The translations under genes were made by a program, and so were the position numbers. Below are positions 28,304 to 46,417 of a stretch of 64,000 nucleotides of DNA, in pieces. The DNA comes from Nitrospirota bacterium (GTDB lineage: Bacteria; Nitrospirota; UBA9217): positions 2,528,001 through 2,592,000 of the forward strand of contig CAVTRN010000002.1 of NCBI GenBank assembly GCA_963737155.1, read 5' to 3'. Every line of letters begins with the position of its first letter. The first letter of the stretch is position 1. The notes beneath the pieces are model-generated. The model was not told the DNA's origin. It ran no database searches and saw only the letters and a list, made by a program, of their open reading frames with translations.

Positions 28304-28367
28304 AAGAAATATTTTCCTTAGATGCCTGTTCTGGTATCGTTGCACATCTCATCAAAGGGATTCGATG

Positions 28368-28688
28368 TCATATCTTAAGCCTTACATGATATCCGATCGC
28401 TCTTCTGATGAGGCGCGCCGCATAATCCTCGACTTCAAAGAGAGACTTCACAGGGGACGGAAGCACCAGGAGAATCCCGTGCCAGATATTTTCAAGCTCG
28501 CGAAGCCGGTCCTCCGCCATGCCGGAGATCAGGCGTTCCTCAATGATGACGAGTCCATTCTCGGCCTCGGCCATAAGCTTTTTAAGGGTCTCCTCTGCTT
28601 CATTAGTATTCACCACATGCTGCGAGACACCGCTCAGACCGAACCCATACTTCACGTCAGGAGGCGTTAAAAAGGCTACCTTCTTCAT
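28368..28688 (-). CDS. A/V-type ATPase subunit F
   Basis: 'GFGLSGV' and C-terminal 'LIRRAIG' motif. Confidence 0.9.
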   Translation of the reverse strand: MKKVAFLTPPDVKYGFGLSGVSQHVVNTNEAEETLKKLMAEAENGLVIIEERLISGMAEDRLRELENIWHGILLVLPSPVKSLFEVEDYAARLIRRAIGYHVRLKI

Positions 28689-28904
28689 CAGGGTCTCCCC
28701 AGGATCGGCAGCACCATACTAAATAGTAACCACTGAAAGCGCAGAGAAAACCGATATATCAGGAACGACTCTATATCCCGGATTTCCTTCCGCTCCTGCC
28801 TATTTCCTGTTCCGTACGATTCCATCCATCGCCTGATCCGCATTTTCAGCTTTCACTGCGCCCCCTATTCTTTTACGGAATTGGCTCCCCATCTCGCGCC
28901 ATCA

Positions 28905-30438: not shown

Positions 30439-30440
30439 CG

Positions 30441-30665
30441 CTATTTCACCGTGAACAGGATCATCGTCGCCACAACGAAACCGAGAATAACCATAGTCTC
30501 GGGGATGGCAACGAGGATCACGATCGTACCGGTGAGTTCCGGTTTTTCGGCCAGAGATCCGGCGCCTGCAGCGCCGATCTTTGACTGGGCCCATGCCGTC
30601 GCAAGGGCGGTGAGACCGATTGCCAAGGCTGCGCTCAACGCGATAAATGCCTTTTCATAATTCAT
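30441..30665 (-). CDS. A/V-type ATPase proteolipid subunit K (c), single hairpin
   Basis: 'AQSKIGAAGAG..AEKP' and 'AIPETMVILGF' with the conserved Glu. Confidence 0.93.
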   Translation of the reverse strand: MNYEKAFIALSAALAIGLTALATAWAQSKIGAAGAGSLAEKPELTGTIVILVAIPETMVILGFVVATMILFTVK

Positions 30666-30790
30666 ATAGACCTCCCTTTTACTATTTTTTTAAGTAATAA
30701 TGGTTTCTCACAATGTCGTTATTTCCGCTTTTCGGGAAGTAAACCAGCCTACCATTAATTCAAGGGCATCATTCCGCATCTTCAAAAGCA

Positions 30791-32674
30791 TCACCCCTGT
30801 CTCTTCAACGGCTCAAACTTTCTCCCGCCGTGCTCCATGAATTTGCTGAAGAATTCGACATAATGGAGCCTCAACGAATGGATGGTGGGTGAGAACACTC
30901 CGAGAATGATGTTAAGCAGGTGGATCATCCCTGCCACGAAAACCCCGATCACGACATCTCCAGTCAAACCACCGAGGTTGTTCGCCACAAATGCGAGAAG
31001 GACGGAGGTGAGGCCTATGGCCATGATACGCACATAAGAAATGATGTTTCCGATGCTCTTCAAAAACTCCAGCGGCGCCAGCAGGCCGCCGGTAAAGAAC
31101 AGGGCCGGTGTCAGGAACAAGATGGCAATGATGACCGGCCTGGCAAGTATCTTAGGCAAGACGCCGAAGAATGATGCGAGAACAACGATCAGCGCCAGGA
31201 TGACGATGATGCTCAACAGTTTATAGACGGCCTCTTTCGTTTCCTTTTTCCGGAACTTCGCAATGACTCCGAATGCCAGCCCGAGCAGGACATGGGCCAC
31301 ACCCACTGCAAGGGTGAAAAATATCATCGGGACAACTGCGGTGCGTCGTTCTATGCAGAGTGGCTGCAAATGAAAGAGGCGTTCGGGCAGGTCTCCAAAG
31401 AACTCCCCAAAGAGCACACCGAAAAAAATGGTATACAGCGATGCGACCAGCAGGATGGAGGCGCCGTCCTTGACGAATTTTCGCTGCCTAAATTTTCGTT
31501 TCAGCACATGCGCAATGCCAGCAAGGAACAGGCCGTACCCAGCATCACCTAGAATCATGCCGAAAAACACGGGAAAGAAAATCCCGATGAACGGCGTCGG
31601 ATCGTAAGAAGTATAAGCCGGCAGCGGAAGCAGGCTCGAGAAAATTTCGAAGGGTTTAAAATAGGGAGAGTTCTTAAGGATGATCGGAACCCGTCCGAGA
31701 TCTTCCTCGCGGATTTCCTTCTCCTCCAGCATGACGCTCCCGTGATAGGACTCCACAAGATTTTTTCTCACGGCCGCCACGTCCCTTGCCGGCATCCATC
31801 CATTGATGAAGAAGCACATGCGCGTTTCGAAGGCCGCCGCGGTCGTGGAAAGAAGCGAAACCCGGTCGTCTATCCATTCACGCACACTCCGGTAGATCGG
31901 CACCCAGCGCAGGGAAAACTGGGTAAGCACGGCATCTATCCCCTCCGCCTCGCGGGTATTCTCGGCCATCCGCTTTTCGACGTAGACGACCTTTTCGAAG
32001 AAGCTGAAACTGTTGAAGGCCGGTGGAAACATGAGTTCAGGAACTTGCTCGTCGCTCAAGGTCTTTTTGACCTTGTCGGCAAGGTCCTTTTCCACCGTAA
32101 TGAGACCAACGAGTGAACCGTCCTTCGCAGACTTCGTCACAAGTTCGAATTTCCAGTCCGTTATGCGCGAAAGGGCCTCTTTCAGGCGCTGAACCATATC
32201 AGGTTCGCGGATAGTCAGGCCGATGAATTCCAGATCCGGTGTTTCTTTTACATTGCCGATGAGCGGCGATAATGTCCCGAAGAAAACGGCATAACGCTGC
32301 AATTCGCTGAGTTCTTTCCGGAGAAATTCTTTCCGTTCATTCCTCTCCTTGATAGTAGTAATATGTCTTTCGATGATTGTAGCCACAGCATCGATAACCG
32401 GACGCGGATCTAGGTAACTGCTTCTGACCGGCATTTTGGGCAAAAAGGACAGGAGTTCGTTAATCCTGGTTCGAAGTTCGTTGAGAAAGGTCCTTTCCAT
32501 CATGGCTTTTTCGTCAAGGTTATAAGATCGGATATCTTCCTCATGCCCTTCTTCGAGAAAGCCGACCGCTGCCGGCTCAATCTGGAAGACACCAAGCTCC
32601 CGCAGCCTGGAGAGTACATCCTGCAGCACGTTTTTCGCCCCGACAATTTCTATTTTTGCCATCCTGACGATCAT
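30791..32674 (-). CDS. A/V-type ATPase subunit I (a)
   Basis: 'DPTPF...FFGMILGDAGYG', 'SYVRIMA' and 'IHSLRLHYVEFF'. Confidence 0.95.
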   Translation of the reverse strand: MIVRMAKIEIVGAKNVLQDVLSRLRELGVFQIEPAAVGFLEEGHEEDIRSYNLDEKAMMERTFLNELRTRINELLSFLPKMPVRSSYLDPRPVIDAVATIIERHITTIKERNERKEFLRKELSELQRYAVFFGTLSPLIGNVKETPDLEFIGLTIREPDMVQRLKEALSRITDWKFELVTKSAKDGSLVGLITVEKDLADKVKKTLSDEQVPELMFPPAFNSFSFFEKVVYVEKRMAENTREAEGIDAVLTQFSLRWVPIYRSVREWIDDRVSLLSTTAAAFETRMCFFINGWMPARDVAAVRKNLVESYHGSVMLEEKEIREEDLGRVPIILKNSPYFKPFEIFSSLLPLPAYTSYDPTPFIGIFFPVFFGMILGDAGYGLFLAGIAHVLKRKFRQRKFVKDGASILLVASLYTIFFGVLFGEFFGDLPERLFHLQPLCIERRTAVVPMIFFTLAVGVAHVLLGLAFGVIAKFRKKETKEAVYKLLSIIVILALIVVLASFFGVLPKILARPVIIAILFLTPALFFTGGLLAPLEFLKSIGNIISYVRIMAIGLTSVLLAFVANNLGGLTGDVVIGVFVAGMIHLLNIILGVFSPTIHSLRLHYVEFFSKFMEHGGRKFEPLKRQG

Positions 32675-32677
32675 AGG

Positions 32678-32998
32678 TCATCCAGGAAGGATTTTATGGA
32701 GATGGCTCCAAACCATGCCCTTGAGCGCATCGTTTTTAATCTGCATAATCCGAGCAGCCTGCTGCTCGGTGCTTGCAATGATATTCAATGCCTTCTGTCT
32801 GGCATCTTCAATGACCGTTTCCCTGGATCGGCGAAAGGATTCCTGAATGTCAACTTCACTGCGCGCAAGTTCTTCTTCAACCTCTTTTTTTCGGGCATTA
32901 AGCCACTCACGCGTAGTAACCATGGCATGATCTACAGATTGCTGAATATCTTTCTCCACCTCTATGACTTCTCGCAGGATGTCGCTTTCCATAGTCAC
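32678..32998 (-). CDS. A/V-type ATPase peripheral stalk subunit G/H
   Basis: Charged coiled-coil of ~105 aa; first gene of the operon. Confidence 0.75.
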   Translation of the reverse strand: MTMESDILREVIEVEKDIQQSVDHAMVTTREWLNARKKEVEEELARSEVDIQESFRRSRETVIEDARQKALNIIASTEQQAARIMQIKNDALKGMVWSHLHKILPG

Positions 32999-33770: not shown

Positions 33771-34436
33771 CTATGCGTCTATCTTGATAATCCCCTTCTG
33801 GATGGCGAACTTGATCAGACCTGCCCGATTGTGGATGCCGAGTTTCTCGCCGATATTGGTCTGATGAGCGACGACAGTCTTGACGCTGATGCAGAGCAAA
33901 TCGGCCACTTCCTTGTGTGTGTACCCTTCCGCCACCAGTTTGAGTACCTGTTTTTCCCTGTCCGTAAGTTTCTCGTAGGGGTTCTCCGTATCAATATCGA
34001 GCTTTCCGTCACCGTGGAGATACCCCTTCACAACCTCGGAGGCGATGGAAGAATAGAGGTAAAGATCCCCTCTGATGATCGCCTTGAGTGCTGCAATAAG
34101 GTCGCTCCCCACCGCCTTTTTGAGCAGATATCCGGACACGCCCGCTTTCAGAAACCGCGAGATGTATTCCCGGTCTTCATACTGAGTAAGCACAAGCACC
34201 TTAATATCGGGGTGCGTTTTCTTGATCTCGATGGTCGCCTCGAGCCCGCCCAATTTAGGCATATTGATGTCCATGATGATAATATCGGGGTGCAGTTTGT
34301 TCGTTTTTTCTATCGCTTCAACCCCGTCAGACGCCTCCGCAACGACTTCGATGTCGTCGCAGAGCTTCAGAAATGCAGCGATGCCCTCGCGCACGAGGGC
34401 GTGGTCGTCGGCAATAAGGACCCTCTTCTTAAGCAT
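33771..34436 (-). CDS. NarL/FixJ-family response regulator (REC + LuxR HTH)
   Basis: 'IADDH..VREG', 'MDINMP', 'GYLLKK' and 'LTDREKQVLKLVAEG'. Confidence 0.96.
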   Translation of the reverse strand: MLKKRVLIADDHALVREGIAAFLKLCDDIEVVAEASDGVEAIEKTNKLHPDIIIMDINMPKLGGLEATIEIKKTHPDIKVLVLTQYEDREYISRFLKAGVSGYLLKKAVGSDLIAALKAIIRGDLYLYSSIASEVVKGYLHGDGKLDIDTENPYEKLTDREKQVLKLVAEGYTHKEVADLLCISVKTVVAHQTNIGEKLGIHNRAGLIKFAIQKGIIKIDA

Positions 34437-36276
34437 TTAAAACCTCCGATGATGCCAGGGGAATCTGTAGGTGTATCTTCGTGCCGATGCCGGGCTGAGA
34501 GAATATTTCGAACTTCCCCCCGAGCAAGCCCACCCGTTCCTTCATGCCCATAAGGCCCAATCCTCTGCGATCTTTCAATTCATGCGTACTTGAATGGAAG
34601 ATCGCATTGAGATCGAACCCTTCTCCATCGTCTTCAATCTCCACGTGAACCATGTCATCCGCTATCTTGAACAGGACGAAGACGTTCTCCGCCTTCGCGT
34701 GTCGCGCGATATTCATGATGGCTTCCTGTATGATTCTGAAAAGGGTGATCTCCACCACCGGGCGGAATCGCCTGTCCTTCACTCCCTCGGTATTCATGAA
34801 ATAATTGATACCCTCTTCGCCGAGGTGGGTGCCAAGGAGGGACTTAATCGCCGCGGTGAGCCCAAGATCGTCGAGCAGCGTCGGCCTCAAATTCTGGATG
34901 ATGCCAATCACGCCATTCCAGGCGCTCAGAACGATTTCCCGTATCTTGTGCACTTCTTGTTCCGTGACCTTATCGGGATGGAGCTTGCACATGTCTACCC
35001 GCATGAGAGCCGCGGAGAGATCTTGGAGCGTGGCGTCATGGAGTTCACGTGCGATCCTCTTCCGCTCATCCTCCTGCGTGGTAATGATCTTTTTCAAAAG
35101 GACCTCGGCCTGCTTCTGGCTATCCTTGATCTGCCGCGTCCTCTCCTGCACCCGATGTTCGAGATCGAGATTTTGCCGCATGATCCGGTCCAGGGACTCG
35201 ACCAATTTTACCCGCATCGTTTCAAAAGAATGGCTGAGGACCCCGATCTCGTCACTGCCTTGGGGCGAAATCGACTTCGATAGATCGCCTTTCGCGATGC
35301 GGTCGGCGCCCCGTATCAGGGTCTTCAGGGGGTTCACGATGCTGCGGTTGATCCCCACCGTTAGGAGCAGCGCGGTTCCCATGAAGAACATGCCGAGCAC
35401 AACAAAATTCCTCCTGAGCTTCGCGATGGGAGAGAACACGTCCCCTCGAGGTTCCTGAATGGCTACGCCCCAAGGTGCAGTCTCAAGCGGGGCGAATGCG
35501 ATAATGGTCGGAACTTTCACGTTCTTGTTGCCAGCAACGTGACAGGAGTAGCAGGCCGTCACCTGCTCCTGATGATTGTCGATTAAGGTGGTAAAAAAAT
35601 TATCGCGGTTGTACTGGGTAAACATTCGGGACGGGACCGACGACGCCAACACCACACCGTTGGAGTCCACGACGTCGATGTATTCGTTTCTCCCCATGTC
35701 AATCAGTCCCAGAGTCTGTAGGAAAGCAGGGTTTGTCGTGTCGATCTGCCCTCCCGCGACTCCTACGGTGAGCCCGTTCTTGTCCCGCAACGGAACAAGC
35801 ACGTAGAGCACTTTCTTCATCGTTGGCTCGACGGTATAGACATTCGAAACGACGGGTTTCCCGAGAGAAAGCATTCTGTTCACCGGTTCGATGCTCATCA
35901 CATTCAGTGAGGCCTCCCTGATTCGCTCGGGATAGGTCAGAATTACCGTACCTCCTCTGTCTAAAAGGAAAACGCCGTCGGTGAATATGGAATATCGGTA
36001 TGCTGCCTTGATTGCCTCCTTCTCTGGCCGGAAGTCACTGTTCTGTAGGTCTACGATGCCTGATAGTGAAATGTCGTAAAGACGGTTGATATTGTCTTTT
36101 ATGGCATTGTCAATATTGCTCCGCACAAGGCGTGACAGTGCGAGCTTCCTGTTCAAAGAATCATCAATGTTCTTCTCGATAATGTAATGGCTTGCGATCC
36201 CCAGACCAGACAGGATGATCGAAATGCCCATCACGACAATCAGCGTAATCCGCTTGCGCAGACTCCCCCTGTTCAT
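34429..36276 (-). CDS. Sensor histidine kinase (Cache-like sensor with CxxCH, HAMP, HisKA_3, HATPase)
   Basis: Two TM helices; 'CYSCH' at 35539-35553 between them; HAMP 'DEIGVL'; 'ERKRIARELHD', 'IEDDGEGF' and 'GLGLMGMKER'. Confidence 0.93.
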   Translation of the reverse strand: MNRGSLRKRITLIVVMGISIILSGLGIASHYIIEKNIDDSLNRKLALSRLVRSNIDNAIKDNINRLYDISLSGIVDLQNSDFRPEKEAIKAAYRYSIFTDGVFLLDRGGTVILTYPERIREASLNVMSIEPVNRMLSLGKPVVSNVYTVEPTMKKVLYVLVPLRDKNGLTVGVAGGQIDTTNPAFLQTLGLIDMGRNEYIDVVDSNGVVLASSVPSRMFTQYNRDNFFTTLIDNHQEQVTACYSCHVAGNKNVKVPTIIAFAPLETAPWGVAIQEPRGDVFSPIAKLRRNFVVLGMFFMGTALLLTVGINRSIVNPLKTLIRGADRIAKGDLSKSISPQGSDEIGVLSHSFETMRVKLVESLDRIMRQNLDLEHRVQERTRQIKDSQKQAEVLLKKIITTQEDERKRIARELHDATLQDLSAALMRVDMCKLHPDKVTEQEVHKIREIVLSAWNGVIGIIQNLRPTLLDDLGLTAAIKSLLGTHLGEEGINYFMNTEGVKDRRFRPVVEITLFRIIQEAIMNIARHAKAENVFVLFKIADDMVHVEIEDDGEGFDLNAIFHSSTHELKDRRGLGLMGMKERVGLLGGKFEIFSQPGIGTKIHLQIPLASSEVLNA

Positions 36277-36385
36277 AAATGAATTATATATCAGACACGT
36301 CCAGAATGAGTAAGAATATTATGAAGAATGTCATCAAAATTGTATGTCATTTCAATTTCTTTCAATGACAAGTAATCCTTAATTA

Positions 36386-37099
36386 CTATGCTGCGGTTGT
36401 CACATCGGGCAACCCCTCCTCCCGTTCGGTAAATTCAAGCAAGTGTTCCTGGAGCATCCGCTCCTTCGAGAGACAGCCCGTAATTATGCACGTATCGAGA
36501 GGAAACACCTCGGGGCTGAAGATCGCGTTGTAGATATGCCAGATGGAGATGATGAGTAATACAACAAGGGCTTCGTTCGCATGCAGAACTTCCGCCGCCG
36601 GGATGGCCTCTCCGGGCAAAAACTTCGTGATCATGACGGGGAACCAGAGAATAAATCCGGTAGCCATCATGATCAGAGCACCGGTGAGGATGGCCCAGTA
36701 CTCGAACTTCTGCTTATATGTATAGCGTCCCCCCTCAGAGGGTTCGATTTCAAGGCCGAGGTAATACCTGATATTATGGACAGCATCGGTAAAATCTTTT
36801 TTTGTGATGACCATGGTGGGCTGCCATTTTCTATAGACAATGCCCACAACCGCTACGGAAATATGCGTGATGACTGCGAGTGAGAAAAGGACTCCCGCGA
36901 AACGATGGATAATCCTGACGCTGTCGATTCCGCCCAGTTGGATAATGAACCATTGAGATACATCGAGCGTGTAGAATCGCTGGGAGAGTCCGGTGCAGAC
37001 AAGCGTCGCCAAAAGGAGCACGTGCACCCAGTGTTCTACGATTCGGGCAGGGTGAAATCTCCTTATCCGCTCTTCCTTTGTAGTCGTGTCTTCTTCCAT
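36386..37099 (-). CDS. Di-heme cytochrome b (FdnI/HyaC/CbcB-like)
   Basis: Four TM segments with His ligands (EHWVH, IIHR...THI, LHANEA...IWHIY); 'GRYTYKQKFEYW'. Confidence 0.9.
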   Translation of the reverse strand: MEEDTTTKEERIRRFHPARIVEHWVHVLLLATLVCTGLSQRFYTLDVSQWFIIQLGGIDSVRIIHRFAGVLFSLAVITHISVAVVGIVYRKWQPTMVITKKDFTDAVHNIRYYLGLEIEPSEGGRYTYKQKFEYWAILTGALIMMATGFILWFPVMITKFLPGEAIPAAEVLHANEALVVLLIISIWHIYNAIFSPEVFPLDTCIITGCLSKERMLQEHLLEFTEREEGLPDVTTAA

Positions 37100-37114
37100 C
37101 TCATCCCCCTTTCG

Positions 37115-38566
37115 CTACCTGTTCACCACATAGCGCCATATATGGAGCAGGATCTGTAATGTCAGCCCAACCACAAGGAAAGGGATAAATATTTTGAACA
37201 CGAGTGTCACTAAAAAGACCAGTGGGGCCCGCGTCATGCTCGGCTCGTAATGGGACAGCCATGCGTCTGGGAAATTTTCGGACGCGTTTGCATGACATTT
37301 CCGGCACCTCTTGACAAGATTGGCCTTGATGTTAATAGTCGTATTGGGTTCGACGGTGCTCATGATATTATGCGTGCCGTGACAGTCAGTGCAGACCGCC
37401 ATGGGTCTTGCCGGTTTGTTCAGCTTTTCCTTCTGCATACGGTAAAATCTCAGCGTGATGCCGTGGAAGTCTGAAAGGTAATTGTCCAAGACAGCCGATG
37501 ATAGGCCATATTTGCCAACGATCGTTTCATTGGCATGACAGCTCCCACACATATCAGGTATTTGCTCTTGAAAGGACTGAGAAAGCGGGTTTTCGATCTT
37601 ATGAGCAGTATGGCAGTCTGTGCATACCGGCACATCCTGATTGTTCTCGTCGAAGAGGGCGCTCCCGTGGACACTTTTTGCGTAGATGGCGTAGATGTCC
37701 TCATGGCACCTCTGGCAACGTTTCGCAATGAGAGTCCGCTCCTTGCCGATATGCGAGATTGCATGCGCGCCGTGGCAGTCTATGCAGACGGGGGCCTGCA
37801 TGTCCCCCTGACTGAGCATAGTATAATGGATGCTTTCAAGCGTCTTCGTGTATTTATCGAAATGGCAACGCCTGCACATCTCCGATAGCGCCAGAGTATA
37901 ATCCCGCATCGTGCTGAAATTCCGCTTCGGGTGCTCTTCAGAGGAAAAACCGTAGTGGCAGTCGGAACAGGAGAGCTTGCTGTGCACCGAGGTTTGAAGC
38001 ACGGAAATGTTTACCGTCGCGGAAAGCGTCTCTCCATTCCTGAATGTCGTCTGCATGGCACGGCCATGGCACTTCATGCAGTATTCTTCTTCGCTTGTAA
38101 ATGTCAGTGTCTCGGTGATCCGTCGTATTGCGTGAGAACCGTGACAGTTTGTACAGATCATCGCCTTGCCTTTTCGTGCTTCGTTCAAAAGAGCAGCGTG
38201 GATACCCTTCGCCCTGATCTGTTCATAGCTGTGGCACCGCGTACAGACGAGCGCGGCTCTTATCTGGTACTGCAATTTATTCCGGAATAACCGCCGGGGA
38301 TGCTTCCCTTCGGAGAAATCGGGATGGCACTGCGAGCACAGAAGCGCATGATGGACGGAGGTCTTAAACACATCCGGGTTCACATAGGCCGCTTCGATTT
38401 CGTTGTTCTGGAATTTTACCGTGATCCCGGGCCGGGCATGGCACGAGAGACATGTCTGGGCTTCTTCCGAAAGATCCCCCATTCCTGCAGCAGCGACGCC
38501 GACATACAGCAGGGATGCAGTAAGAAGAAACAGCGCGTAACTGACTGTACGCTTTCCTTTCTCCAT
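37115..38566 (-). CDS. Membrane-anchored multiheme cytochrome c (13 CxxCH)
   Basis: Signal peptide from MEKGKR; 13 CxxCH motifs counted; repeated 'SVH/SIH' units; C-terminal TM helix. Confidence 0.93.
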   Translation of the reverse strand: MEKGKRTVSYALFLLTASLLYVGVAAAGMGDLSEEAQTCLSCHARPGITVKFQNNEIEAAYVNPDVFKTSVHHALLCSQCHPDFSEGKHPRRLFRNKLQYQIRAALVCTRCHSYEQIRAKGIHAALLNEARKGKAMICTNCHGSHAIRRITETLTFTSEEEYCMKCHGRAMQTTFRNGETLSATVNISVLQTSVHSKLSCSDCHYGFSSEEHPKRNFSTMRDYTLALSEMCRRCHFDKYTKTLESIHYTMLSQGDMQAPVCIDCHGAHAISHIGKERTLIAKRCQRCHEDIYAIYAKSVHGSALFDENNQDVPVCTDCHTAHKIENPLSQSFQEQIPDMCGSCHANETIVGKYGLSSAVLDNYLSDFHGITLRFYRMQKEKLNKPARPMAVCTDCHGTHNIMSTVEPNTTINIKANLVKRCRKCHANASENFPDAWLSHYEPSMTRAPLVFLVTLVFKIFIPFLVVGLTLQILLHIWRYVVNR

Positions 38567-38749
38567 AGATACCCCGTATGCACAGCCTCGGGCGCTTTGC
38601 GCATTACTACACATCTTCAGAGGCGAGGAGAAGTGAGATAAACTCAAGGACGAATATCGAAATCTTAAAGAATATTTTATTGGATTTACGGTTTCGTGCT
38701 ATGAATTTGCCGTGATCTCCTTGCCCCCCTTGTTAACTTCTCATCGACC

Positions 38750-39997
38750 CTAGTGAGACTCATACTCCGCATCTGCATGAAGCACGGGCATACGGTTCAA
38801 AATCCATCGGAATATCAGTATATGAATCGTCACGATTGTGACCACAACCATCGTCTCTTTCCACCCGGGAATGATGGAATCGAGGTGATGCGGGAGCAGC
38901 CAGTTCAATGCAATAATCGAGACGTTGAGCCTGTTGACGATAATCCCGACCACGGCATAGAAGGCCGCAAATCGTACGACACCGACGCTCTGTTTTTTCA
39001 CTCCATAAGTGAACAGCAGCATAGGGACCAGGACGAACCCAATGAGTTCGACCAGAAACCAGTAACCGTATGGGGTGTTCAGGAGACCCCAGTTATTGTC
39101 ATGGGCAATGCCGATGATCTTGAACACAAAATAGACAAACATACCAACAGCGGCGCCCTGCCCAAGGCCAAGAGTCAGCATGGGCAGACTATCCCGAAAC
39201 CTCTGGTCTGTCCTGTTCTTCAGGAATTGGATCGCGAGGGTACTGACGACGATCACCATTGCCAAAGCCGCATAGATGCTCGAACAGAGGAAAAACACCC
39301 AAATGTACGGGCTGTACCACAGCGGGTGAAGCTTTCCCGGGACAAGCAAGTACATCGCGCCGAGCGCAGATTGATGCAGCGTCGAGAGTATGATGCCTGC
39401 TATCGTCATGCCGATCGTGACCATCACCGCCCACCTGCGAACCCTCTGCGATCTCAGCCACTCCAAGATGGCAGGGCTGAATTCAACCACTTGGACCGTT
39501 AGGTATGTGGCCACATGCCACGCCACCAGGAAGAGCACCGATTGGGTGCCGAACCCTATGATCATGGGATAGTAGATCCGCCATGGCCTGCCCAAATCGT
39601 TCAAAAGGTACACGACGGCGAAAAAATACCCCAGTAACCCGGTGAGCACGGAGAGCCTCAGGAGTGGATGGTACCTCTTGTATCCGAAGATGTAATACGC
39701 CGTAGCCATCACGAATCCCGTGGCCGACAGCGGAACACCGCCGAAAAGTCCCCATCCGAGGAACAACCCCCAAGGGTACTCGTTCGAAGCACCGGTCACC
39801 AGGTAGAGCCCGAAGAGAAAACGCATCGCAATGAGCGGCAACCCCACGCTCAGGATGATCGCGGCGACAATATTGAACGGCGTGAGCAAATTCCTAAAAT
39901 ATTCAGGCCAGGTCATGTCCATTAGCAGCTTGCTCATGAACCATGACCGGAAGTCTCTTGGCCGCTCCTCAACCTTGACAGCCATGTTCGTGCTCAT
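38750..39997 (-). CDS. NrfD/PsrC-family membrane subunit (HmcC/HybB-like)
   Basis: 'YPWGL', 'DLGRPWR' and 'LSTLHQSALG...KLHPLWYS'; about 10 TM segments. Confidence 0.92.
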   Translation of the reverse strand: MSTNMAVKVEERPRDFRSWFMSKLLMDMTWPEYFRNLLTPFNIVAAIILSVGLPLIAMRFLFGLYLVTGASNEYPWGLFLGWGLFGGVPLSATGFVMATAYYIFGYKRYHPLLRLSVLTGLLGYFFAVVYLLNDLGRPWRIYYPMIIGFGTQSVLFLVAWHVATYLTVQVVEFSPAILEWLRSQRVRRWAVMVTIGMTIAGIILSTLHQSALGAMYLLVPGKLHPLWYSPYIWVFFLCSSIYAALAMVIVVSTLAIQFLKNRTDQRFRDSLPMLTLGLGQGAAVGMFVYFVFKIIGIAHDNNWGLLNTPYGYWFLVELIGFVLVPMLLFTYGVKKQSVGVVRFAAFYAVVGIIVNRLNVSIIALNWLLPHHLDSIIPGWKETMVVVTIVTIHILIFRWILNRMPVLHADAEYESH

Positions 39998-41022
39998 TTT
40001 TTCACCTCCCTTTTAGCCTCTTCCTCTTTTTTCTCTTTCTCTTCCTTATCGAATTCTTCTCTATGTCGCAACGCTGCGTAGATCGTCCCGAAGAGTGCCG
40101 GCCATGCCGTTAATACAATGGGAACCGCAGAGAGGAAACCCTTGGTCTCTTCAATGAGCGGCGTCTTGGGAAGATTTGTTGGAAAACCTAGCTGCTCAAA
40201 GGGGATTCCCGCGATATAGATCCAGTTTGTGCCTCCCACCTCGTGCTCGCCGTAAATATGGTTCACATATTTTCCGGGATTATTGTCTATTCTCTCCCTG
40301 GCTACTTTGAGCAATTCCTCGCGCTTCCCGAAGGTGATCGCCCCCACTGGGCAGGCTTCGGAGCAAGCGGTCATTTTACCCTCTTTGATCCGCGGATAGC
40401 ACATGGTGCACTTCTGTATGCGCGGTTCGAATGCGCTCCAGTAATCATAGGCCGGGATGTAGAAAGGACAGGCTGTCATGCAGTAGCGGCACCCGAAACA
40501 CAGGTCGGGATTGTACTTGACCGCCCCTTCCGGCGTTTTCGAATAAGCGTGGATTGGGCAGGACGTGAGACAGGCCGGTTCCTTGCAGTGGTTGCACTGT
40601 ATTTTCCGGTATATCGGCTTGCTTTTGTCCTTCGGATTTTCATACCGATTGACCACTGTGTAAGCCTTCACCGTAGGCATTCGCTTCTCTTCGAAGACGG
40701 AGCCGTCATCGAAGGGCTTGTCCGGCGCTGGCAGGCCGTTGAATTCGTTGCATGCCTTCTCGCAGCTTCGGCATCCAACGCAGGCGGTTAGGTCTGTTAG
40801 CAAGCCAAAGCTATTGGGATACCCTTCGAAGTCCTCGGCGGCAAAAGATTTACCCGGACGGCCCAGAAGCAGCGTGCCACCGATCGCGCCAGCCGTCCCC
40901 AAAAAGAACCGCCTGTTCATCTGTAAACCGGGGTCTTTCTTCTCCTCGTTTTTCTTCTCATCGAGGGGGCCGTCTGCAGGTTGTTTGGTTTCTTTCTTCA
41001 TGGAAACCTCCTTAGTCATCAC
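39994..41022 (-). CDS. Tat-exported 4x[4Fe-4S] protein (HmcB/HybA-like)
   Basis: Tat motif 'NRRFFLG'; CVGCRSC, CNHC..PAC...CP, CFGCRYC...CPF and KCTMC; 'IYGEHEVGGT'; C-terminal TM; true start may be 41001 or later. Confidence 0.92.
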   Translation of the reverse strand: MMTKEVSMKKETKQPADGPLDEKKNEEKKDPGLQMNRRFFLGTAGAIGGTLLLGRPGKSFAAEDFEGYPNSFGLLTDLTACVGCRSCEKACNEFNGLPAPDKPFDDGSVFEEKRMPTVKAYTVVNRYENPKDKSKPIYRKIQCNHCKEPACLTSCPIHAYSKTPEGAVKYNPDLCFGCRYCMTACPFYIPAYDYWSAFEPRIQKCTMCYPRIKEGKMTACSEACPVGAITFGKREELLKVARERIDNNPGKYVNHIYGEHEVGGTNWIYIAGIPFEQLGFPTNLPKTPLIEETKGFLSAVPIVLTAWPALFGTIYAALRHREEFDKEEKEKKEEEAKREVKK

Positions 41023-41052
41023 GCTCTCACTTGGTTATGCACGTGTGCAGAC

Positions 41053-41538
41053 TTACCGGGTCTGCATCCCTACCTGTCTCACCTTTCTAGCATGGCATAG
41101 TTCCGTGCACCCCTTTGGATCCAGCCCCACGTCGCTCATCCCTAGGTGGCATTTGAAACACGTCTGGTGGTACGCGACCTTGAGCCCCGGCATTGTCGGA
41201 TTTCCGGGGTCAGGAGCGCTGTGGCAACCGGAACAAGGTAAAAAATTTTGGACGACCGAATTCTTGAAAACCGACGGGTTCAGGTTGTGGCACTGCTGGC
41301 ATGTCGACGCCGCGCCGTTCCCGTGATGATGGCAGGCGTCGCAATTGCCCGCTATCGGTAAATGCTTCGTGTGGTCAAACGTTACCGGTTCATACACGTC
41401 TGAAATGCTGCTCAACACACAGATCCCCGGAAGACGTGCTGCTGGGGATGAACTCGTTGGGCTCTCTCCCGCGTAGAGATATGCCGCGAACAGGATGCCC
41501 AAAGACAGCCCCAAGACGATGCATGCTCTCTTTTTCAT
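41053..41538 (-). CDS. Class III (c3-type) periplasmic cytochrome c
   Basis: Signal peptide MKKRAC...; 'PVTFDHTKH'; CDACH, CQQCH, CSGCH, CFKCH and CTELCH; 'GLKVAYH'. Confidence 0.9.
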   Translation of the reverse strand: MKKRACIVLGLSLGILFAAYLYAGESPTSSSPAARLPGICVLSSISDVYEPVTFDHTKHLPIAGNCDACHHHGNGAASTCQQCHNLNPSVFKNSVVQNFLPCSGCHSAPDPGNPTMPGLKVAYHQTCFKCHLGMSDVGLDPKGCTELCHARKVRQVGMQTR

Positions 41539-41580
41539 GTTCTTTTCTCCCTTCCTCGGTAATAGCATGGAACCTATTTC

Positions 41581-41740
41581 AGATATTTGCCTCAAATAAG
41601 CGACGCCGACGGGATTTTCAATTTTTGTTTTCCTTAGTCTTTGGCTTTTTTTTATTTGCCGAGAGGAACGCTCTCCGCCTAGGTGAGAATTATTTTCTTT
41701 TACCCTCTTTGTTCCTTATATTACTTGCTATATTCTAGCA
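41581..41740 (-). pseudogene. Internally deleted copy of the 42314-42667 gene with its upstream and downstream flanks
   Basis: 41581-41678 aligns by eye with 42275-42378, and 41680-41740 with 42657-42713; translates RRAFLSANKKKPKTKENKN* versus RSAYLSGKKKEKAKDKEDKK*. Confidence 0.75.
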
Positions 41741-41796
41741 CAATTTATTAAAGTATGAATTGCCATTACTTCCCATTTTATGTCATGGAACTTATT

Positions 41797-42210
41797 TTAT
41801 GGCATCTTTTTGGACCCGGCTTTTTCCTTTTTCCTCTTCCTTCCTGCAAGATACGCCTCCACGGGCCTCCATTCAAAGGTCATGCTCTTCCCCGCCACAG
41901 CCGCCCCGCCTTTTATGGCAAGGTTGACCACCGCAGCCGCCAAGACCGCAAAGAACCCGATCGGCAGCATCACGATATAGGCGAGGCCAATGAATGGCGC
42001 CGACACTATCTTGCCCACCGTCTTCATGAGGTGACCTATCCCGCCGGACTCCCTGATATACGTAAGATCGTCCCTCCCGGTGTTAACCACGGTCTTGAAC
42101 GGTTTGGGCTTCAGAAACTCCCAGAACACCAGGAACACACCAATAGCGAGAAGAGACAGGATGTATTCGATACCCTTGACATGAGTGATGAAATCTACGA
42201 GCGTATACAT
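41797..42210 (-). CDS. Small membrane protein: HmcD-like N-terminus fused to the shared paralog domain
   Basis: N-terminus 'MYTLVDFITHVKGIEY...FWEFL' resembles HmcD; C-terminus 'PFIGLAY...GKSMTFEWRPVEAYLAG' shared with the two upstream ORFs; AGGAGG RBS. Confidence 0.75.
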   Translation of the reverse strand: MYTLVDFITHVKGIEYILSLLAIGVFLVFWEFLKPKPFKTVVNTGRDDLTYIRESGGIGHLMKTVGKIVSAPFIGLAYIVMLPIGFFAVLAAAVVNLAIKGGAAVAGKSMTFEWRPVEAYLAGRKRKKEKAGSKKMP

Positions 42211-42313
42211 GGTATTCCTCCTTTTGTGGATGAACTTTTGTTATACTGTTTTCCCCTCTATCCCTAGCAGCCTCGGATATTATTGCCGCAAATGAGCGAC
42301 GCTAACGAGATTT

Positions 42314-42667
42314 TCACTTTTTATCTTCCTTGTCTTTGGCTTTTTCCTTCTTCTTTCCCGACAGGTACGCGCTCCGCGGCCTCCAGCCGACGGAAATGCT
42401 CTTACCGAACAGACTGACCGCCCCTCTCAGGACTTCACGGCCCGCCTCGACCGCTATCATGGCTATGCCAATGAAGGGCAGAAATACGACATACAACAAC
42501 CCAATAAACGGTCCCGACAGAAGCATTATGCCGACGGGCAGCCTGAGATATTTTGACGCCTCTCCCCCGGGCAGAACGGATTCCTGTGTCACGTCCACCC
42601 GATGTCCGCTCCGTACCTCCCAGTAAGTTCCCTTGCCAACCTTATGTCCTCCCTTGTAAGTAAGCAT
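42314..42667 (-). CDS. Hypothetical small membrane protein (paralog 2)
   Basis: 'YKGGHKVGKGTYW...YLRLP...PFIGLLYVVFLP...GKSISVGWRPRSAYLSG'. Confidence 0.8.
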   Translation of the reverse strand: MLTYKGGHKVGKGTYWEVRSGHRVDVTQESVLPGGEASKYLRLPVGIMLLSGPFIGLLYVVFLPFIGIAMIAVEAGREVLRGAVSLFGKSISVGWRPRSAYLSGKKKEKAKDKEDKK

Positions 42668-42723
42668 TTTCTTTCACCCCCTTTTCGGCTTTGTTACTTG
42701 CTCTAGTCTAGCAGTATGCGTAT

Positions 42724-43053
42724 TCACAAAAATCTCTCTTCTCCGGAAAAATACACATTCTTGTGTCTCCATCCAAAGGAGATGTTCTTCCCCGCAATTC
42801 CTGAAAGGCCGTTTAGCATCTTGACACCTACGACCAATGCAATTGTTGTCATCCCGAGGAATGGCATCAGGACTGTGTAGATCAACGCCACAATTGGTAT
42901 AGCCGCTAGCATGAAGCCTACAGGCATTTTTAGATACGTCGACGGGTTTTTCCCCATTAAGATGGCTTCACCACAAACATCTACTCTTCGCCCATCAACT
43001 ACATTCCAATATGAGCCTGCTGTTACTCTGAATCCGTTTCTATATGTGAACAT
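42724..43053 (-). CDS. Hypothetical small membrane protein (paralog 3)
   Basis: 'YRNGFRVTAGSYW...YLKMP...LIYTVLMP...GKNISFGWRHKNVYFSG'; GGAGGAGG RBS before ATG 43053. Confidence 0.78.
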   Translation of the reverse strand: MFTYRNGFRVTAGSYWNVVDGRRVDVCGEAILMGKNPSTYLKMPVGFMLAAIPIVALIYTVLMPFLGMTTIALVVGVKMLNGLSGIAGKNISFGWRHKNVYFSGEERFL

Positions 43054-43110
43054 CGTACCCACCTCCTCCCTTGTTGCTTTATATATATCAGTAATCTCTA
43101 TGCATGAAAA

Positions 43111-43147
43111 TCGGGACATAGTCCTATTCTCGTGGGAAAATAGTCCT
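43111..43147. promoter_or_regulatory. Candidate response-regulator binding sites upstream of the redox operon
   Basis: GGAC-ATA-GTCC palindrome plus a second ATAGTCCTA copy 22 bp away; near-identical TCGGGACTTAGTCC at 45242-45255. Confidence 0.4.
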
Positions 43148-43687
43148 AGAATTGTTTTTTGGCTCCTCAGCAGAATCTGTGGATAAAAAATCAGCATTTA
43201 AGGAAAAGTCTCGCATTCCGGCATAACCATTATGCTAATTTATAGTTGCATTGACGTGACATTTGCCATTGCTGTCTTTATTCATCGTTGCTTACAACGC
43301 AGGTGATAAATCTCACTGTGACATTTATTAGCCTATTCGCTAGTGATGAGATCTTGCAATCACGCGTAATTACAGAACAAATACGGAATCGTAATCTAAA
43401 AAATATCCACAGATTCAGCGGAGGAGGCTGTTTTTTAAGTGGATAAGCAAGTGAGGATAAACATCATGCTCCCGTTGGATAGAGACGAAAAGTACTGTAA
43501 TTTTAAATGATTAGGCCGTTCATACGGACAAGGTGGAAGGGCGTGTCGGTTTGTTCCGGAAGATCATAGAATCGAGGTCACACCGTCACAGACGCAGGGG
43601 GCATGTCCGCCGAAGTCCTGCTTTCGAAAAACGTGACAACGCAGACATAGCAGTGATAGACTGTCTCATCGTGAAAATGATGCGCTG

Positions 43688-44242
43688 TCACGGTACCAGG
43701 CTCTGGGCGATTTTTATAAGCTCGAAGGGCGAGGATTTCATCGTAACCGTCATCATACAGTTTCCCTCGTTCCACGAAATCCTGCTGCAGACGTCATTTT
43801 GCTCGCAAGTACCGACCTTGAGGAGCGCGTTTCTCCCTTTCAAGTCGTAAGAAACCGATTCCTTAACCTGCAGAATCCTGATCCGGTCGTCGAGGGCGGG
43901 TCGGTCTGAAGCTGTCTGCGATATGACAAGAGCGGGTTCAATCGTGCCCGCGCGGCGGAATACCATGAGCGTCGCGACATACGGTTTTGTCTGCGCCCAT
44001 ATCTCCGAAGGTGGCCACGTGACGCTCTGGGGAAAGTAGGTGGGAACCCTGATATCTCGGATGTTCAGTTTTGCTCGTACCGCCTCAACACTATCGTAGG
44101 TCCTTAGGGTACCTTGCTGCAGTACCAGAGGGAGCCAGTTGAGCGTTTTTAAAACAGTAAGAACCGCTATGATGGTCAGTGTAAAGTACACATACCTGCG
44201 GATTCTGTCGCGCATAACTTTCACCTCACGATCATACGACAA
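43688..44242 (-). CDS. Hypothetical membrane-anchored periplasmic protein
   Basis: N-terminal TM; 'VPTYFP...WPP'; overlaps the upstream peptidase gene. Confidence 0.75.
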   Translation of the reverse strand: MSYDREVKVMRDRIRRYVYFTLTIIAVLTVLKTLNWLPLVLQQGTLRTYDSVEAVRAKLNIRDIRVPTYFPQSVTWPPSEIWAQTKPYVATLMVFRRAGTIEPALVISQTASDRPALDDRIRILQVKESVSYDLKGRNALLKVGTCEQNDVCSRISWNEGNCMMTVTMKSSPFELIKIAQSLVP

Positions 44243-45221
44243 AGTAGCAGACGCCTAACATTAGGAGCAGGACAATCGTAAAGGGAAACCACCCCCCACC
44301 TCTACTCTGCAGCCGCGCCTTCTCAAGTCTCGTGATCCTACTCTCGAGCTGCAGATCATGACTGTACTCCTCAAGAGGGACGTCCTTCGCGAGAAGTTCT
44401 TTCGCAGTATTAGGAGACCGTCCATGACTTGAATAAAATTTTTTCAAAGTCTCCGCGAGAGCATCCGGTCTTCCTGTGACAGAGACGGCAATGTCGTCGC
44501 AGATTTTCTCCTCGTTCCTGACAGCCCTTCTGAATTCCACGAGCACCATAGGATTGAAGAACATGATCATCCTGAGCAAAAATGTGGCAAGGAGAACCGG
44601 CCGTCTGCTCCGTGTAATATGGGCGATCTCGTGCGCCAGGGCAGCCCGAATCTGATCTCTGCTTAGCGCCTTGAGGAGGCCGCTCGATACGAAGACTGCC
44701 GCCTCTCTCCCTGTCGATGAAAAGAGAAAAATATCGTCGTCGTCGATAATGACGGTTCTGGGCTTGTCCATGGGGAGAGACATCAATGCCTCGTCCACTA
44801 GCTCTTTTCCAACTGGGTCGCATGCTTCGACAACGTCAGTGTCAGATTCACGCATATGTCTGACTACCGGCACCAGTTCCTGAAATAAAAATACGAGGGC
44901 CGTGCCCACAAGCAGAAATATGAAAAAAAAGTGGAGCGGTACTATTCCAAACAATTCCATACCCATCCATCTTCCGCTATCGAAGAGGGCCGTTGCCCGG
45001 AAGAGAAGGGAACCACGGTCGGGATTTATCAACTGATAGAAGGGAAAAGAAAAAACGGGAAACAGCACGGTGAGAATGCGAAACCTCTGTTTCACCGCTG
45101 GATCTTCGATCTTCCATGCACGCAGAGCGCCGTCTGCTATGACCACGGCGATGAACGCATGAAGGAAAGATTGCGTCACATACCTGCCTGCAAGGGATTG
45201 TAAGATATCCGGAATATTCAT
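44232..45221 (-). CDS. Membrane Zn metallopeptidase (M56 BlaR1-like/M48)
   Basis: HEXXH 'LAHEIAH', 'FFNP...EEKICDD.A' and TM segments. Confidence 0.88.
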   Translation of the reverse strand: MNIPDILQSLAGRYVTQSFLHAFIAVVIADGALRAWKIEDPAVKQRFRILTVLFPVFSFPFYQLINPDRGSLLFRATALFDSGRWMGMELFGIVPLHFFFIFLLVGTALVFLFQELVPVVRHMRESDTDVVEACDPVGKELVDEALMSLPMDKPRTVIIDDDDIFLFSSTGREAAVFVSSGLLKALSRDQIRAALAHEIAHITRSRRPVLLATFLLRMIMFFNPMVLVEFRRAVRNEEKICDDIAVSVTGRPDALAETLKKFYSSHGRSPNTAKELLAKDVPLEEYSHDLQLESRITRLEKARLQSRGGGWFPFTIVLLLMLGVCYFVV

Positions 45222-45571
45222 ACATTTCGAATCGTCGAAAGTCGGGACTTAGTCCACAATACAGAGAGGGAACGTGCCAGACCAGTTCCAGAAACAGAAA
45301 AACCATCGTGCGAGCCTTGATTAAGATTATCCGACAGAATGGCAAGGATTTCAAGTAGTAAAAACAGATGCCTAACCATCACCGAGCGTCATATGCCCAC
45401 ATATGCACCTTTTTGCGGTCAGTTGCAGAGGAACTCTCTCGTCAGGCCTTTTCAAGCCAGTCAAAGGTGATCTTCAGACGGTCCCGGATGTCAGGACGTC
45501 CGTGCGTCGAGAGTTAACTGGTGGTCACCCATTTGAAGGAACCCTTCAAGTTAAAAAAACCCATCACGGTT

Positions 45572-45957
45572 ACATCAATTTGTTGCCAGCCATGACGCCA
45601 AGACATTAATCGGGAAATGCGAGGTGTGGATTTATGGAATGCCAATGAACAGATGGCTTTGTTTCGTGATTTTAGCGATTCCTGAGGTCATTTTTGACCG
45701 CATCTGTTTTGTAAAGAATCAAGAACGACGTTCGTTGGCTGCGTGCTAAGAAGCGACTCAGATACCGATGAGTCCGAGAGTCAGGTGCAGTTTGGCCGCG
45801 TAGAGTAAATCGTTGAGCTATGTTGCTCGGCATCTGAAAGCGTAGAATAGCCATGGCGAGATCACGGAGAGACGCCCTGACCCAGGGCTGAACTTCGTTT
45901 GGATACGGCAGCGATCTTCTTCAAAAGTGACATTAGCCGCAATGCACTTTATTTTCA
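45572..45957 (-). mobile_element. Degenerate 3' end of an ISAs1-family transposase plus downstream flank (copy B)
   Basis: 'ENKVH...VTFEEDRCRIQTK...ASLRDLAMAILR...LHLTLGLIGI*'; colinear with copy A including the non-coding sequence beyond the stop. Confidence 0.8.
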
Positions 45958-46417
45958 GGCTCAAGTCCGAAGTGAGTGGGAACTTTAAGCCTTTTTTGAT
46001 CATATGCCAGAAGCATTCAAGAGAGTACGACTACGCGAGCATGAAAATCGCCAAAGATGGCATGAATCGCTCTCTTTATCTTGCAACAGATACAAATCGG
46101 AGGGAGGTCGTATATTCGAATGTCCTCCCACATACTACTCTCCTCTTTAAGCACTTTTGCATTAGAGAATGGGGCGGACAGAAGCGGGGCACAAGGCCCG
46201 AATGAACAATTGTCTTGGATTGGCCATGCAGGTACAATATCAACCGGCTATTCAGAACCATGACAGTACTCTGATTAATTTCAATTATTGTTCTTTCGTT
46301 TTTAGCCAATCGGGCCTTAAGAACATTCCTGCCGCCGTCCCAGATGAATAATTATTTCTGAAATAACCCAGCAACTGGTGTAAAATAAAGTCATCTTGTC
46401 GAAAAGGCAGCGCAGGC

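Follow-up and report, generated by a model that had tools for sequence, protein, structure and literature searches.

A 64,000-nucleotide stretch of contig CAVTRN010000002.1 from a Nitrospirota bacterium (assembly GCA_963737155.1, positions 2,528,001 to 2,592,000 of the forward strand), hereafter the window, carries a gene cluster for two membrane cytochrome modules that is real, widely conserved in uncultured anaerobic bacteria and undescribed in the literature we searched. We tentatively read the cluster, at somewhat less than an even chance, as a respiratory operon of two menaquinone-reactive modules with accessory and regulatory genes, in which electrons would enter via one module (A) and leave via the other (B). 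In more general terms, its probable task is to pass respiratory electrons between the quinones of the cell membrane and the space outside that membrane. The parts are of known kinds; what is new is their combination, a family of small membrane subunits (sm), a chimera of an HmcD-like helix with that family, a haem-bearing dCache_1 kinase and a protease pair. Our literature searches returned no paper describing this cluster.

Ten genes, all on the minus strand and separated by short gaps or overlaps, occupy window positions 33771-43053 in our reading of the open reading frames (ORFs). From the upstream end they encode three small membrane proteins (sm1, sm2 and sm3), a small multihaem cytochrome, an Fe-S protein, an NrfD-family membrane protein, a 13-haem cytochrome, a dihaem cytochrome b, a sensor histidine kinase and a response regulator. 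A preliminary description of this DNA had listed the same ten co-directional genes, and all are present. It had also placed the limit of the block at 43053, and in this respect it has to be extended: the conserved cluster reaches upstream to 45221 and takes in a membrane protease of the M48/M56 type and a membrane protein of 184 amino acids (aa). The earlier statement that no catalytic subunit belongs to the block holds, with neither a hydrogenase nor a molybdoenzyme in 33771-45221.

Conservation of the cluster in related loci

Genomes were scanned with an alignment of the 13-haem protein of module B as seed, which gave 197 relatives. The best 80 loci were compared over up to 10 kb per side; their ORFs were called and then compared with the window proteins, and the linkage counts below come from these maps. 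The 13-haem family is large and well conserved; the best 120 matches listed for it were 55-85% identical and mostly ~482 aa long, and the few source names among them were metagenome-assembled genomes (MAGs) of Nitrospirae and Deltaproteobacteria.

The preliminary description had joined both modules in one unit and would have been refuted had they never co-occurred in other genomes; they are in fact adjacent in most relatives. The gene for the HmcC-like protein of module A lies directly upstream of the 13-haem gene in 71/80 loci, with the 184-aa gene or the sm2 gene there instead in eight and no upstream DNA in one. The cytochrome b gene follows the 13-haem gene directly in 78/80 loci, and the remaining two contigs end. 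The kinase and regulator genes, which had likewise been counted as part of the unit, stand beside the modules in every locus with enough DNA: downstream on the same strand in 65/80 and inverted in two (L021 and L079), with 13 loci ending too early. Full flanks, of 6.5 kb or more upstream and 3.7 kb or more downstream, are available for 44 loci. In 33 of these all eleven families lie on one strand, five show a short form without module A, and six deviate, five of them without the protease and/or 184-aa gene within 7.5 kb and one with inverted regulators.

Record titles place most of the carriers in Nitrospirota, among them Thermodesulfovibrionales, Candidatus Sulfobium and Dissulfurispiraceae; the others are Candidatus Deferrimicrobia (Deferrimicrobiota) and MAGs labelled Deltaproteobacteria. 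The titles give groundwater, sediment and other subsurface samples as the origins of the MAGs. These carriers (Thermodesulfovibrionia-type Nitrospirota and Deferrimicrobiota/MBNT15) are almost all uncultured. The operon is of interest as a candidate link between their periplasmic carriers and the quinone pool, and a single highly conserved operon that unites an Nhc-type with a CbcBA-type module offers a marker gene set for surveys.

Eight short loci in all consist of the protease, the 184-aa protein, sm2 in some cases, the 13-haem cytochrome, cytochrome b, kinase and regulator, and are without the small cytochrome, the HmcB- and HmcC-like proteins and sm3. Because of these eight loci we regard module B, the regulators and the protease pair as the constant part of the cluster and the Hmc-like module as an insert; module B is the constant core and works without module A in them. 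A tree of the 13-haem protein was built from the window and 79 loci (a filter that required 430 aa or more and 13 motifs excluded one locus). On this midpoint-rooted tree the short form accounts for two changes, a well-supported clade of seven and L053, both nested among long forms, and it is likely, given this root, that the short form arose by loss of module A rather than by gain.

Two further arrangements were seen among these loci. L045 (1-16219) holds two tandem copies of the cluster, the first with the 13-haem cytochrome, cytochrome b, kinase and regulator, and the second in the order sm2-sm3-sm2-sm3-cytochrome-HmcB-HmcC-13-haem-cytochrome b-kinase-regulator; the kinase of the first copy has a CxxCH motif and that of the second has none. 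Beside their short-form clusters, L047 (14956-19039, minus strand) and L055, with the same layout, encode an additional multihaem cytochrome of 355 aa and a cytochrome b of 307 aa, which are 33-34% identical to the window proteins. A further multihaem cytochrome of 692 aa in this extra set was confirmed for L047 only.

Module A resembles a shortened Nhc/Hmc-type set

Module A comprises sm3 (41797-42210), the small periplasmic cytochrome c (41053-41595, likely start at 41541), the HmcB/HybA-like Fe-S protein (39994-41022), which is exported by the twin-arginine translocation (Tat) route, and the HmcC/HybB-like NrfD-family membrane protein (38750-39997). Judged by sequence, it appears to be a cut-down, minimal cytochrome c:menaquinone oxidoreductase of the Nhc/Hmc type. 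The small cytochrome matches Pfam Cytochrom_CIII, in line with the c3-type assignment of the preliminary description, and carries four CxxCH motifs plus one CxxxxCH at residues 163-168. The five motifs and five further His are each at least 98% conserved in 61 sequences; the protein is therefore probably a pentahaem cytochrome rather than the tetrahaem protein implied by a c3 label, and likely carries five bis-His haems. It aligns with residues 167-289 of nine-haem NhcA (1duw; E 3.7e-12) and with residues 380-509 of the 514 in 16-haem HmcA (1h29; E 5.3e-12). Against the HmcA model NF045713 it scores 40.7 bits (cut-off 400), covering only positions 474-540 of 541, and against the nine-haem NhcA model NF045784 it scores 39.1 bits (cut-off 640). 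It is thus neither a 16-haem HmcA nor a nine-haem NhcA, and is homologous to their C-terminal domains only.

The Fe-S protein has an RRFFLG twin-arginine motif, a Fer4_11 domain (Pfam) and a C-terminal transmembrane helix at residues 296-314. Its 16 Cys are each at least 98% conserved in 63 sequences, 15 of them in 63/63, and by analogy with the family it would bind four [4Fe-4S] clusters. The match to the HmcB model NF045715 is full-length and reaches 416.2 bits, missing the cut-off of 420 by 4 bits, compared with 223 bits for HybA. The NrfD protein (PF03916), whose start overlaps the HmcB-like gene by 4 nt, is without a haem motif and provides the first expected quinone site; HmcC is its best family (model NF045714, 412.5 bits, cut-off 550), ahead of HybB (180.4) and QrcD (67.5). 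Residues 2-33 of sm3 match the HmcD model NF045712 at 31.9 bits (cut-off 34), and the same model is matched by 28/33 sm3 orthologues (E<=0.001). These scores uphold the likeness to Hmc that had been noticed in the preliminary description, with the NCBIfam cut-offs missed for all of HmcA, HmcB, HmcC and HmcD.

The absences noted earlier were confirmed as well. Pfam and NCBIfam gave no HmcF-type cytoplasmic Fe-S protein in 33771-45221 and no 16-haem HmcA in the block. HmcE is a NarI-like protein; none of this type was found in the block, where the sole cytochrome b is PF01292/FdnI-like. Hmc, Nhc and a third type, Ohc, were reportedly defined by the comparative genomics of Pereira et al. in 2011.

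In composition, module A is comparable to Nhc. In the outline of Nhc given in PMC8076601, the parts are NhcA, a subunit with 4x[4Fe-4S], an NrfD-like subunit and a small membrane subunit, with no cytoplasmic subunit mentioned there. The corresponding features here are 16 conserved Cys, PF03916, an HmcD-like helix and no encoded cytoplasmic partner. The NhcB, NhcC and NhcD models were not among the NCBIfam matches. Module A holds a counterpart of each of NhcA, NhcB, NhcC and NhcD, with a much shortened cytochrome. Like the Nhc/Hmc complexes of Desulfovibrio, which are cytochrome c3:quinone oxidoreductases, it has in the periplasm a multihaem cytochrome of c3 lineage, together with an Fe-S protein that is exported by Tat and has 16 conserved Cys (four [4Fe-4S] clusters in NhcB/HmcB) and a C-terminal helix, a haem-less NrfD subunit and a small HmcD/NhcD-like helix. 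It differs from them in that their cytochromes have nine or 16 haems, whereas that of module A has five motifs and corresponds to the C-terminal domain only, and in that the HmcD-like helix is fused to another module and encoded first. HmcF, which is part of Hmc, is missing here, and the only cytochrome b of the block belongs to PF01292.

Module B resembles CbcBA by its architecture

The 13-haem cytochrome c (37115-38647, likely start at 38566) has 13 CxxCH motifs between an N-terminal signal-like hydrophobic stretch, taken as a signal peptide, and a C-terminal transmembrane anchor. Each of the 13 motifs is invariant in 22 aligned sequences, as are 13 further His, and the anchor helix bears a near-invariant His in the same alignment. 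A sequence search of the PDB gave weak local matches only (6i5b_A, 2.9e-6; NrfB, 5e-5). An AlphaFold2 model from the 22-row alignment was too poor for a fold search (mean pLDDT 51.3, pTM 0.26) and was set aside.

The gene for cytochrome b (36386-37099) begins 15 nt after the 13-haem gene. Its product belongs to PF01292, matches FdnI in the PDB (1kqf_C, E 1e-9) and has four His (23, 65, 173 and 188) conserved in 81/81 sequences; it provides the second expected quinone site. With 61.9 bits against TIGR01583, the formate dehydrogenase gamma subunit (equivalog cut-off 115.85), it can be classed by sequence as a member of the FdnI superfamily and not of the Fdn subunit family. FdnI-type cytochromes b act as quinone reductases in formate dehydrogenase-N and hydrogenases. 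Module B shares with FdnI of Escherichia coli formate dehydrogenase-N and with HydC/HyaC of [NiFe] hydrogenases the PF01292 family, the four conserved His and a partner with a C-terminal anchor helix. It differs in that the partner is a 13-haem cytochrome and not the Fe-S subunit of an enzyme, in having an extra small subunit, and in missing the NCBIfam equivalog cut-offs.

The closest published architecture is that of CbcBA. In Geobacter sulfurreducens, a four-helix dihaem cytochrome b is accompanied by a seven-haem cytochrome held by a C-terminal helix, in which a His was proposed as a possible b-haem ligand (10.1101/2021.04.15.440034). According to the same source, the operon includes two hypothetical proteins and a response regulator, and CbcBA is a tightly regulated menaquinol oxidase used at low potential. 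The CbcBA-type layout, with a four-helix dihaem cytochrome b beside a C-terminally anchored multihaem c, is present here and kept together in 78/80 loci. The resemblance pointed out in the preliminary description therefore stands, and we consider module B to be built like Geobacter CbcBA, the likeness being one of published architecture. Common to both are the dihaem cytochrome b next to a multihaem c with a His-bearing C-terminal helix and the setting in a regulated operon, where hypothetical proteins and a response regulator are also encoded. Module B has 13 haems, compared with seven in CbcBA, and all four b-haem His lie within its cytochrome b, whereas CbcB is reported with three. It is also coupled to an Nhc-like module, and its neighbouring regulators form a NarL-type two-component system in place of sigma-54/BccR.

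A family of small membrane proteins and a predicted third subunit

The three small proteins, encoded by sm1 (109 aa, 42724-43053), sm2 (117 aa, 42314-42667) and sm3, each have a hydrophobic core and had been described as paralogues of one another. This is accurate for sm1 and sm2, which are 45% identical over 104 aa (E 1e-34). For sm3 it applies to the C-terminal 68 aa only (40% identity to sm2, E 7e-16), the N-terminus being the HmcD-like helix; sm3 is a natural chimera of this helix with the C-terminal half of the sm family. None of the three matched a Pfam family, sm2 matched no NCBIfam family, and in the ESM Atlas sm2 matched unnamed clusters only. The family extends to 958 representative clusters at E<=0.001 (418 at E<=1e-10). 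The sm1 gene, with the ribosome-binding site GGGAGGAGG before its ATG at 43053, is an extra sm2 paralogue; of the 80 loci only L001 and L002, the two closest to the window, have it too. Both sm2 and sm3 are present in 56/56 long loci with enough upstream DNA (16 further long loci are too short to judge), while the short loci have sm3 in 0/8 and sm2 in 3/8.

Several lines of evidence connect the family with module B. A second, diverged operon in L053 (14772-18106, minus strand) has no Hmc genes and begins with two sm genes (products of 129 and then 115 aa), after which come a multihaem cytochrome of 622 aa and a PF01292 cytochrome b of 210 aa. Among 150 listed representatives of the family, two of the seven longest, P0221 (602 aa) and P0199 (305 aa), are fusions in which the N-terminal 78-82 residues of the sm type run into a multihaem cytochrome resembling the 13-haem protein, with a gene-calling artefact possible. 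In these fusions the sm domain and helix replace the signal peptide of the cytochrome, and the N-terminus of the sm helix should therefore be cytoplasmic.

The preliminary description had proposed structure prediction of the subunit complexes, and we built a model of cytochrome b together with residues 380-483 of the 13-haem protein, in which sm2 was the scored partner. The model was made from our own alignments and holds three chains, so that the calibration applies to it roughly. It scored 0.70, a mark reached by 116/157 solved complexes and by 2/215 mismatched pairs, and the best of three controls scored 0.00. Agreement between the runs covers at least 94% of contacts, and the pLDDT of the partner is at least 72. 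In the model, residues 45-74 and 18-25 of sm2 touch cytochrome b residues 84-142 and residues 460-474 of the anchor helix. The contacts use G56 and P64, invariant in the sm family, the nearly invariant L57 and Y59, and, on the side of cytochrome b, three residues (K131, F132 and W135) of its invariant motif K131-W135. By analogy with the topology of FdnI, the modelled contact would lie on the cytoplasmic side, where FdnI binds quinone. The model supports binding of sm2 to module B without showing it. Together with the synteny, the fusions and the second operon, it suggests that sm2-type proteins are probably a third subunit of module B, and the unnamed sm family would then represent a predicted third subunit of cytochrome bc-type quinone modules. 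Since sm3 joins an HmcD-like helix to the sm-fold part that makes the modelled contacts, the idea of sm3 as a bridge between the modules is retained.

The second operon of L053 adjoins a divergently oriented gene for a rhomboid protease (18233-18919).

A haem-motif kinase, its regulator and a conserved promoter block

The kinase gene (34429-36276) encodes dCache_1, HAMP, HisKA_3 and HATPase domains, and overlaps by 8 nt with the start of the gene for a NarL/LuxR-type regulator (33771-34436; Response_reg and GerE in Pfam). The haem motif of the kinase, CYSCH at residues 242-246, lies between two transmembrane segments in the membrane-proximal part of the dCache_1 match (61.4 bits, cut-off 45). 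Among 65 full-length orthologues, the window included and fragments dropped, 46 have CxxCH, eight have CxxCK and 11 have neither. The eight CxxCK kinases, all with CHRCK, come from L029, L044, L049, L058, L065, L066, L077 and L080, all of a Deferrimicrobia-type clade. In NrfA, the lysine-ligated haem of the active site has a CxxCK motif.

The sensor part of the kinase gave no match to PF11845 (sCache_heme) even at E<=10, and nothing below E 0.5 in a sequence search of the PDB. The sCache_heme domains (DUF3365/PF11845/Tll0287) are presented in a 2026 preprint as the first Cache domains with a covalent cofactor, and those fused to signalling modules behave as nitric oxide (NO) sensors (PMC12889525). 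As in these domains, the sensor of the kinase is extracytoplasmic, of the Cache type and fused to signalling modules, and it bears a motif for covalent haem c, but the fold is dCache_1 and PF11845 is unmatched. As dCache_1 is matched and PF11845 is not, the kinase domain would be a separate instance of a haem-bearing Cache, and with it the haem-Cache principle would also hold for double Cache domains.

A conserved promoter block (43082-43148, minus strand) precedes the first small-protein gene; it is the only conserved stretch of the 634-bp spacer and shows a related pattern in 7/7 aligned loci. It contains two exact copies of TAGGACTAT 22 bp apart (43140-43148 and 43118-43126), with no others anywhere in the 64-kb window, and an extended -10-like element, TGATATATA, at 43082-43090, ~30 nt before the start codon. 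We consider the block a candidate binding site of the response regulator. Judged by adjacency and the conserved block, the two-component system may regulate the operon. In a wider scan, 26 promoter-like sites were counted where 14.5 were expected, a result informative only for the site before the protease gene (45354-45326), which is the best of the region; terminator-like sites numbered 12, with 13.7 expected. No Rfam family was matched anywhere in the 64-kb window.

A membrane protease paired with a 184-aa protein

The conserved cluster opens with a predicted BlaR1-like membrane zinc metalloprotease (44232-45221, minus strand), whose gene overlaps by 11 nt with that of the 184-aa protein (u184; 43688-44242, minus strand). 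The protease has an HEIAH motif and matches Peptidase_M48 (39.3 bits) and Peptidase_M56 (33.9 bits, cut-off 31) in Pfam. In 38/44 full-flank loci it is found upstream of the 13-haem gene, on that gene's strand and no more than 7.5 kb away; in the maps it comes directly before the u184 gene. With BlaR1/MecR1 (M56) and HtpX (M48) it shares the HExxH zinc protease core between membrane helices. Unlike BlaR1/MecR1, it ends after the last helix without a sensor domain, has no BlaI-type repressor nearby and is paired with a single-pass 184-aa protein; of the BlaR1-type features, only the M56 core is matched. No conserved gene, a BlaI-type repressor included, was found upstream of the protease, where the largest family occurs in 7/56 loci. 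The ~1.2 kb upstream of the gene in the window (45222-46417) is without an ORF of at least 100 aa and without an Rfam match.

The 184-aa protein, conserved next to the protease, has an N-terminal transmembrane helix and a beta-sheet domain in an AlphaFold2 model (pLDDT 87.5); the modelled domain would be periplasmic. Foldseek returned 0 PDB matches at E<=0.001, and no fold family was assigned. The best match was 1tu1_A (3.1e-3), followed by weak ones to EagT6, LpqN, PsbP, DcrB and RseB. A likeness to DUF4367 (29% share in one ESM Atlas cluster, Pfam E 0.23) is a lead only. The protease and the 184-aa protein may have roles in the operon.

Proposed working and alternative explanations

Both membrane subunits may react with quinones, as the characterised members of their families do. 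We suggest that low-potential periplasmic carriers would pass electrons to the five-haem protein and on through the Fe-S protein to menaquinone at the HmcC-like subunit. Menaquinol would then be re-oxidised at cytochrome b, and the 13-haem chain would deliver the electrons to periplasmic or extracellular acceptors, such that the quinone pool would connect two periplasmic redox pools. The haem-c Cache kinase may sense the redox state (or NO) outside the membrane, with the NarL-type regulator driving the promoter with two TAGGACTAT repeats before the small-protein genes. This direction, in via module A and out via module B, is drawn from the proposal that the clade of QrcD, HybB and HmcC are electrogenic menaquinone reductases taking protons from the cytoplasm (PMC6303296) and from menaquinol oxidation by CbcBA.

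A number of points weigh against this reading. The direction of electron flow is a matter of analogy only; that of HmcC is itself stated to be uncertain in PMC6303296, and CbcBA-like modules could run towards quinone reduction, as FdnI does. The likeness to CbcBA was judged by its published description. Quinol oxidation on the N side at cytochrome b would cancel the charge separation at the HmcC-like subunit, so that the loop need not conserve energy. The eight loci without module A and the second, stand-alone module B in L053 indicate that the modules are not obligatorily coupled, and as all loci were found via the 13-haem protein, loci with module A only could not appear. Also, 11/65 kinases are without the haem motif.

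Both modules could instead be menaquinol oxidases that form two exits from the quinone pool, to periplasmic and extracellular acceptors such as Fe(III), humics or sulfur, and the kinase would set their timing. Geobacter has parallel systems of this sort in Cbc4 (CbcSTU) and Cbc5 (CbcBA). Cbc4, a proposed quinol oxidase, combines a tetrahaem cytochrome anchored in the membrane with a 4x[4Fe-4S] protein and a subunit integral to the membrane (10.1101/2025.04.14.648717), and CbcBA is a tightly regulated quinol oxidase used at low potential (10.1101/2021.04.15.440034). The carriers include Deferrimicrobiota, and in the account of MBNT15 SHF-111 given in PMC9386147 sulfate and nitrate reductases are missing and iron reduction is predicted via similar clusters. 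Yet the group closest to the HmcC-like protein is HmcC/HybB, for which a preference for quinone reduction has been proposed (PMC6303296), the small cytochrome is of the c3/NhcA type and not of the NapC type as CbcS, and no outer-membrane conduit is conserved beside the cluster in the 80 loci; we regard two exits as rather unlikely. The reverse, in which both modules are menaquinone reductases, seems improbable to us. They would serve as entries for periplasmic electrons, from H2 or formate via cytochromes and from Fe(II), electrodes or partner cells via the 13-haem chain, feed sulfate or sulfur respiration and replace Qrc. No hydrogenase or formate dehydrogenase is linked to the cluster in the block or the 80 loci, the closest architectural analogue of module B is a quinol oxidase (10.1101/2021.04.15.440034), and Deferrimicrobiota-type carriers appear in the descriptions of PMC9386147 without sulfate reduction. 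What speaks for two entries is that Qrc is given as present only in Deltaproteobacteria and the HmcC/HybB clade as proposed electrogenic quinone reductases (PMC6303296), that many carriers are titled Thermodesulfovibrionales, Candidatus Sulfobium or Dissulfurispiraceae, and that the PDB matches of cytochrome b point to FdnI-type proteins, which act as quinone reductases.

It is also conceivable, if very improbable, that the modules are mere neighbours, independent units kept together by descent, and that the two-component system serves module B only. The eight short loci and the L053 operon make module B look self-sufficient, and the regulators and protease pair stay with it where module A is missing. 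Against this stand the position of module A, which in 71/80 loci across Nitrospirota and Deferrimicrobiota is inserted within the unit, on its strand, after the small-protein genes and before the 13-haem gene, and the sm3 chimera, which occurs in 56/56 long forms and 0/8 short forms. At the other extreme, sm3 might tie the Nhc-type menaquinone reductase to the CbcBA-type menaquinol oxidase in one supercomplex, with a private quinone loop that separates charge while electrons pass from low- to higher-potential periplasmic cytochromes, switched by what would be the first covalent-haem-c dCache sensor. We think such a supercomplex improbable; if it exists, it would give the anaerobic respiration of Nitrospirota and Deferrimicrobiota a coupling site that was not known before.

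Neighbouring genes in the window

Directly downstream of the regulator, on the same strand and after a 772-bp gap, lies an operon for a V/A-type ATPase (subunits I, E, C, F, A, B and D by Pfam/NCBIfam; 24497-32998, minus strand). Its subunit I gene and the preceding 106-aa ORF were found beside the cluster only in L001, the closest relative, among the 80 loci, a comparison in which the other ATPase genes were not queried. On the opposite strand, 18 kb from the cluster, a 712-aa molybdopterin oxidoreductase is followed by a Fer4_22 protein and an FAD/NAD-binding protein with a DHODB-type Fe-S domain (15160-19286, plus strand). The set looks like a cytoplasmic enzyme, with no twin-arginine signal in the Pfam layout of the oxidoreductase.

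Also on the plus strand (7250-11052), a gene resembling aminoimidazole ribonucleotide (AIR) carboxylase and a nickel-insertion gene (PF01969), a pair familiar from LarB/LarC of lactate racemase cofactor synthesis, precede a glutamine-dependent NAD synthase. On the minus strand, 48916-50475 encodes a 519-aa polyferredoxin with Fer4_5 and several other 4Fe-4S motifs. The window also holds two DUF362 proteins, one with Fer4 (12217-13377) and one at 51443-52345.

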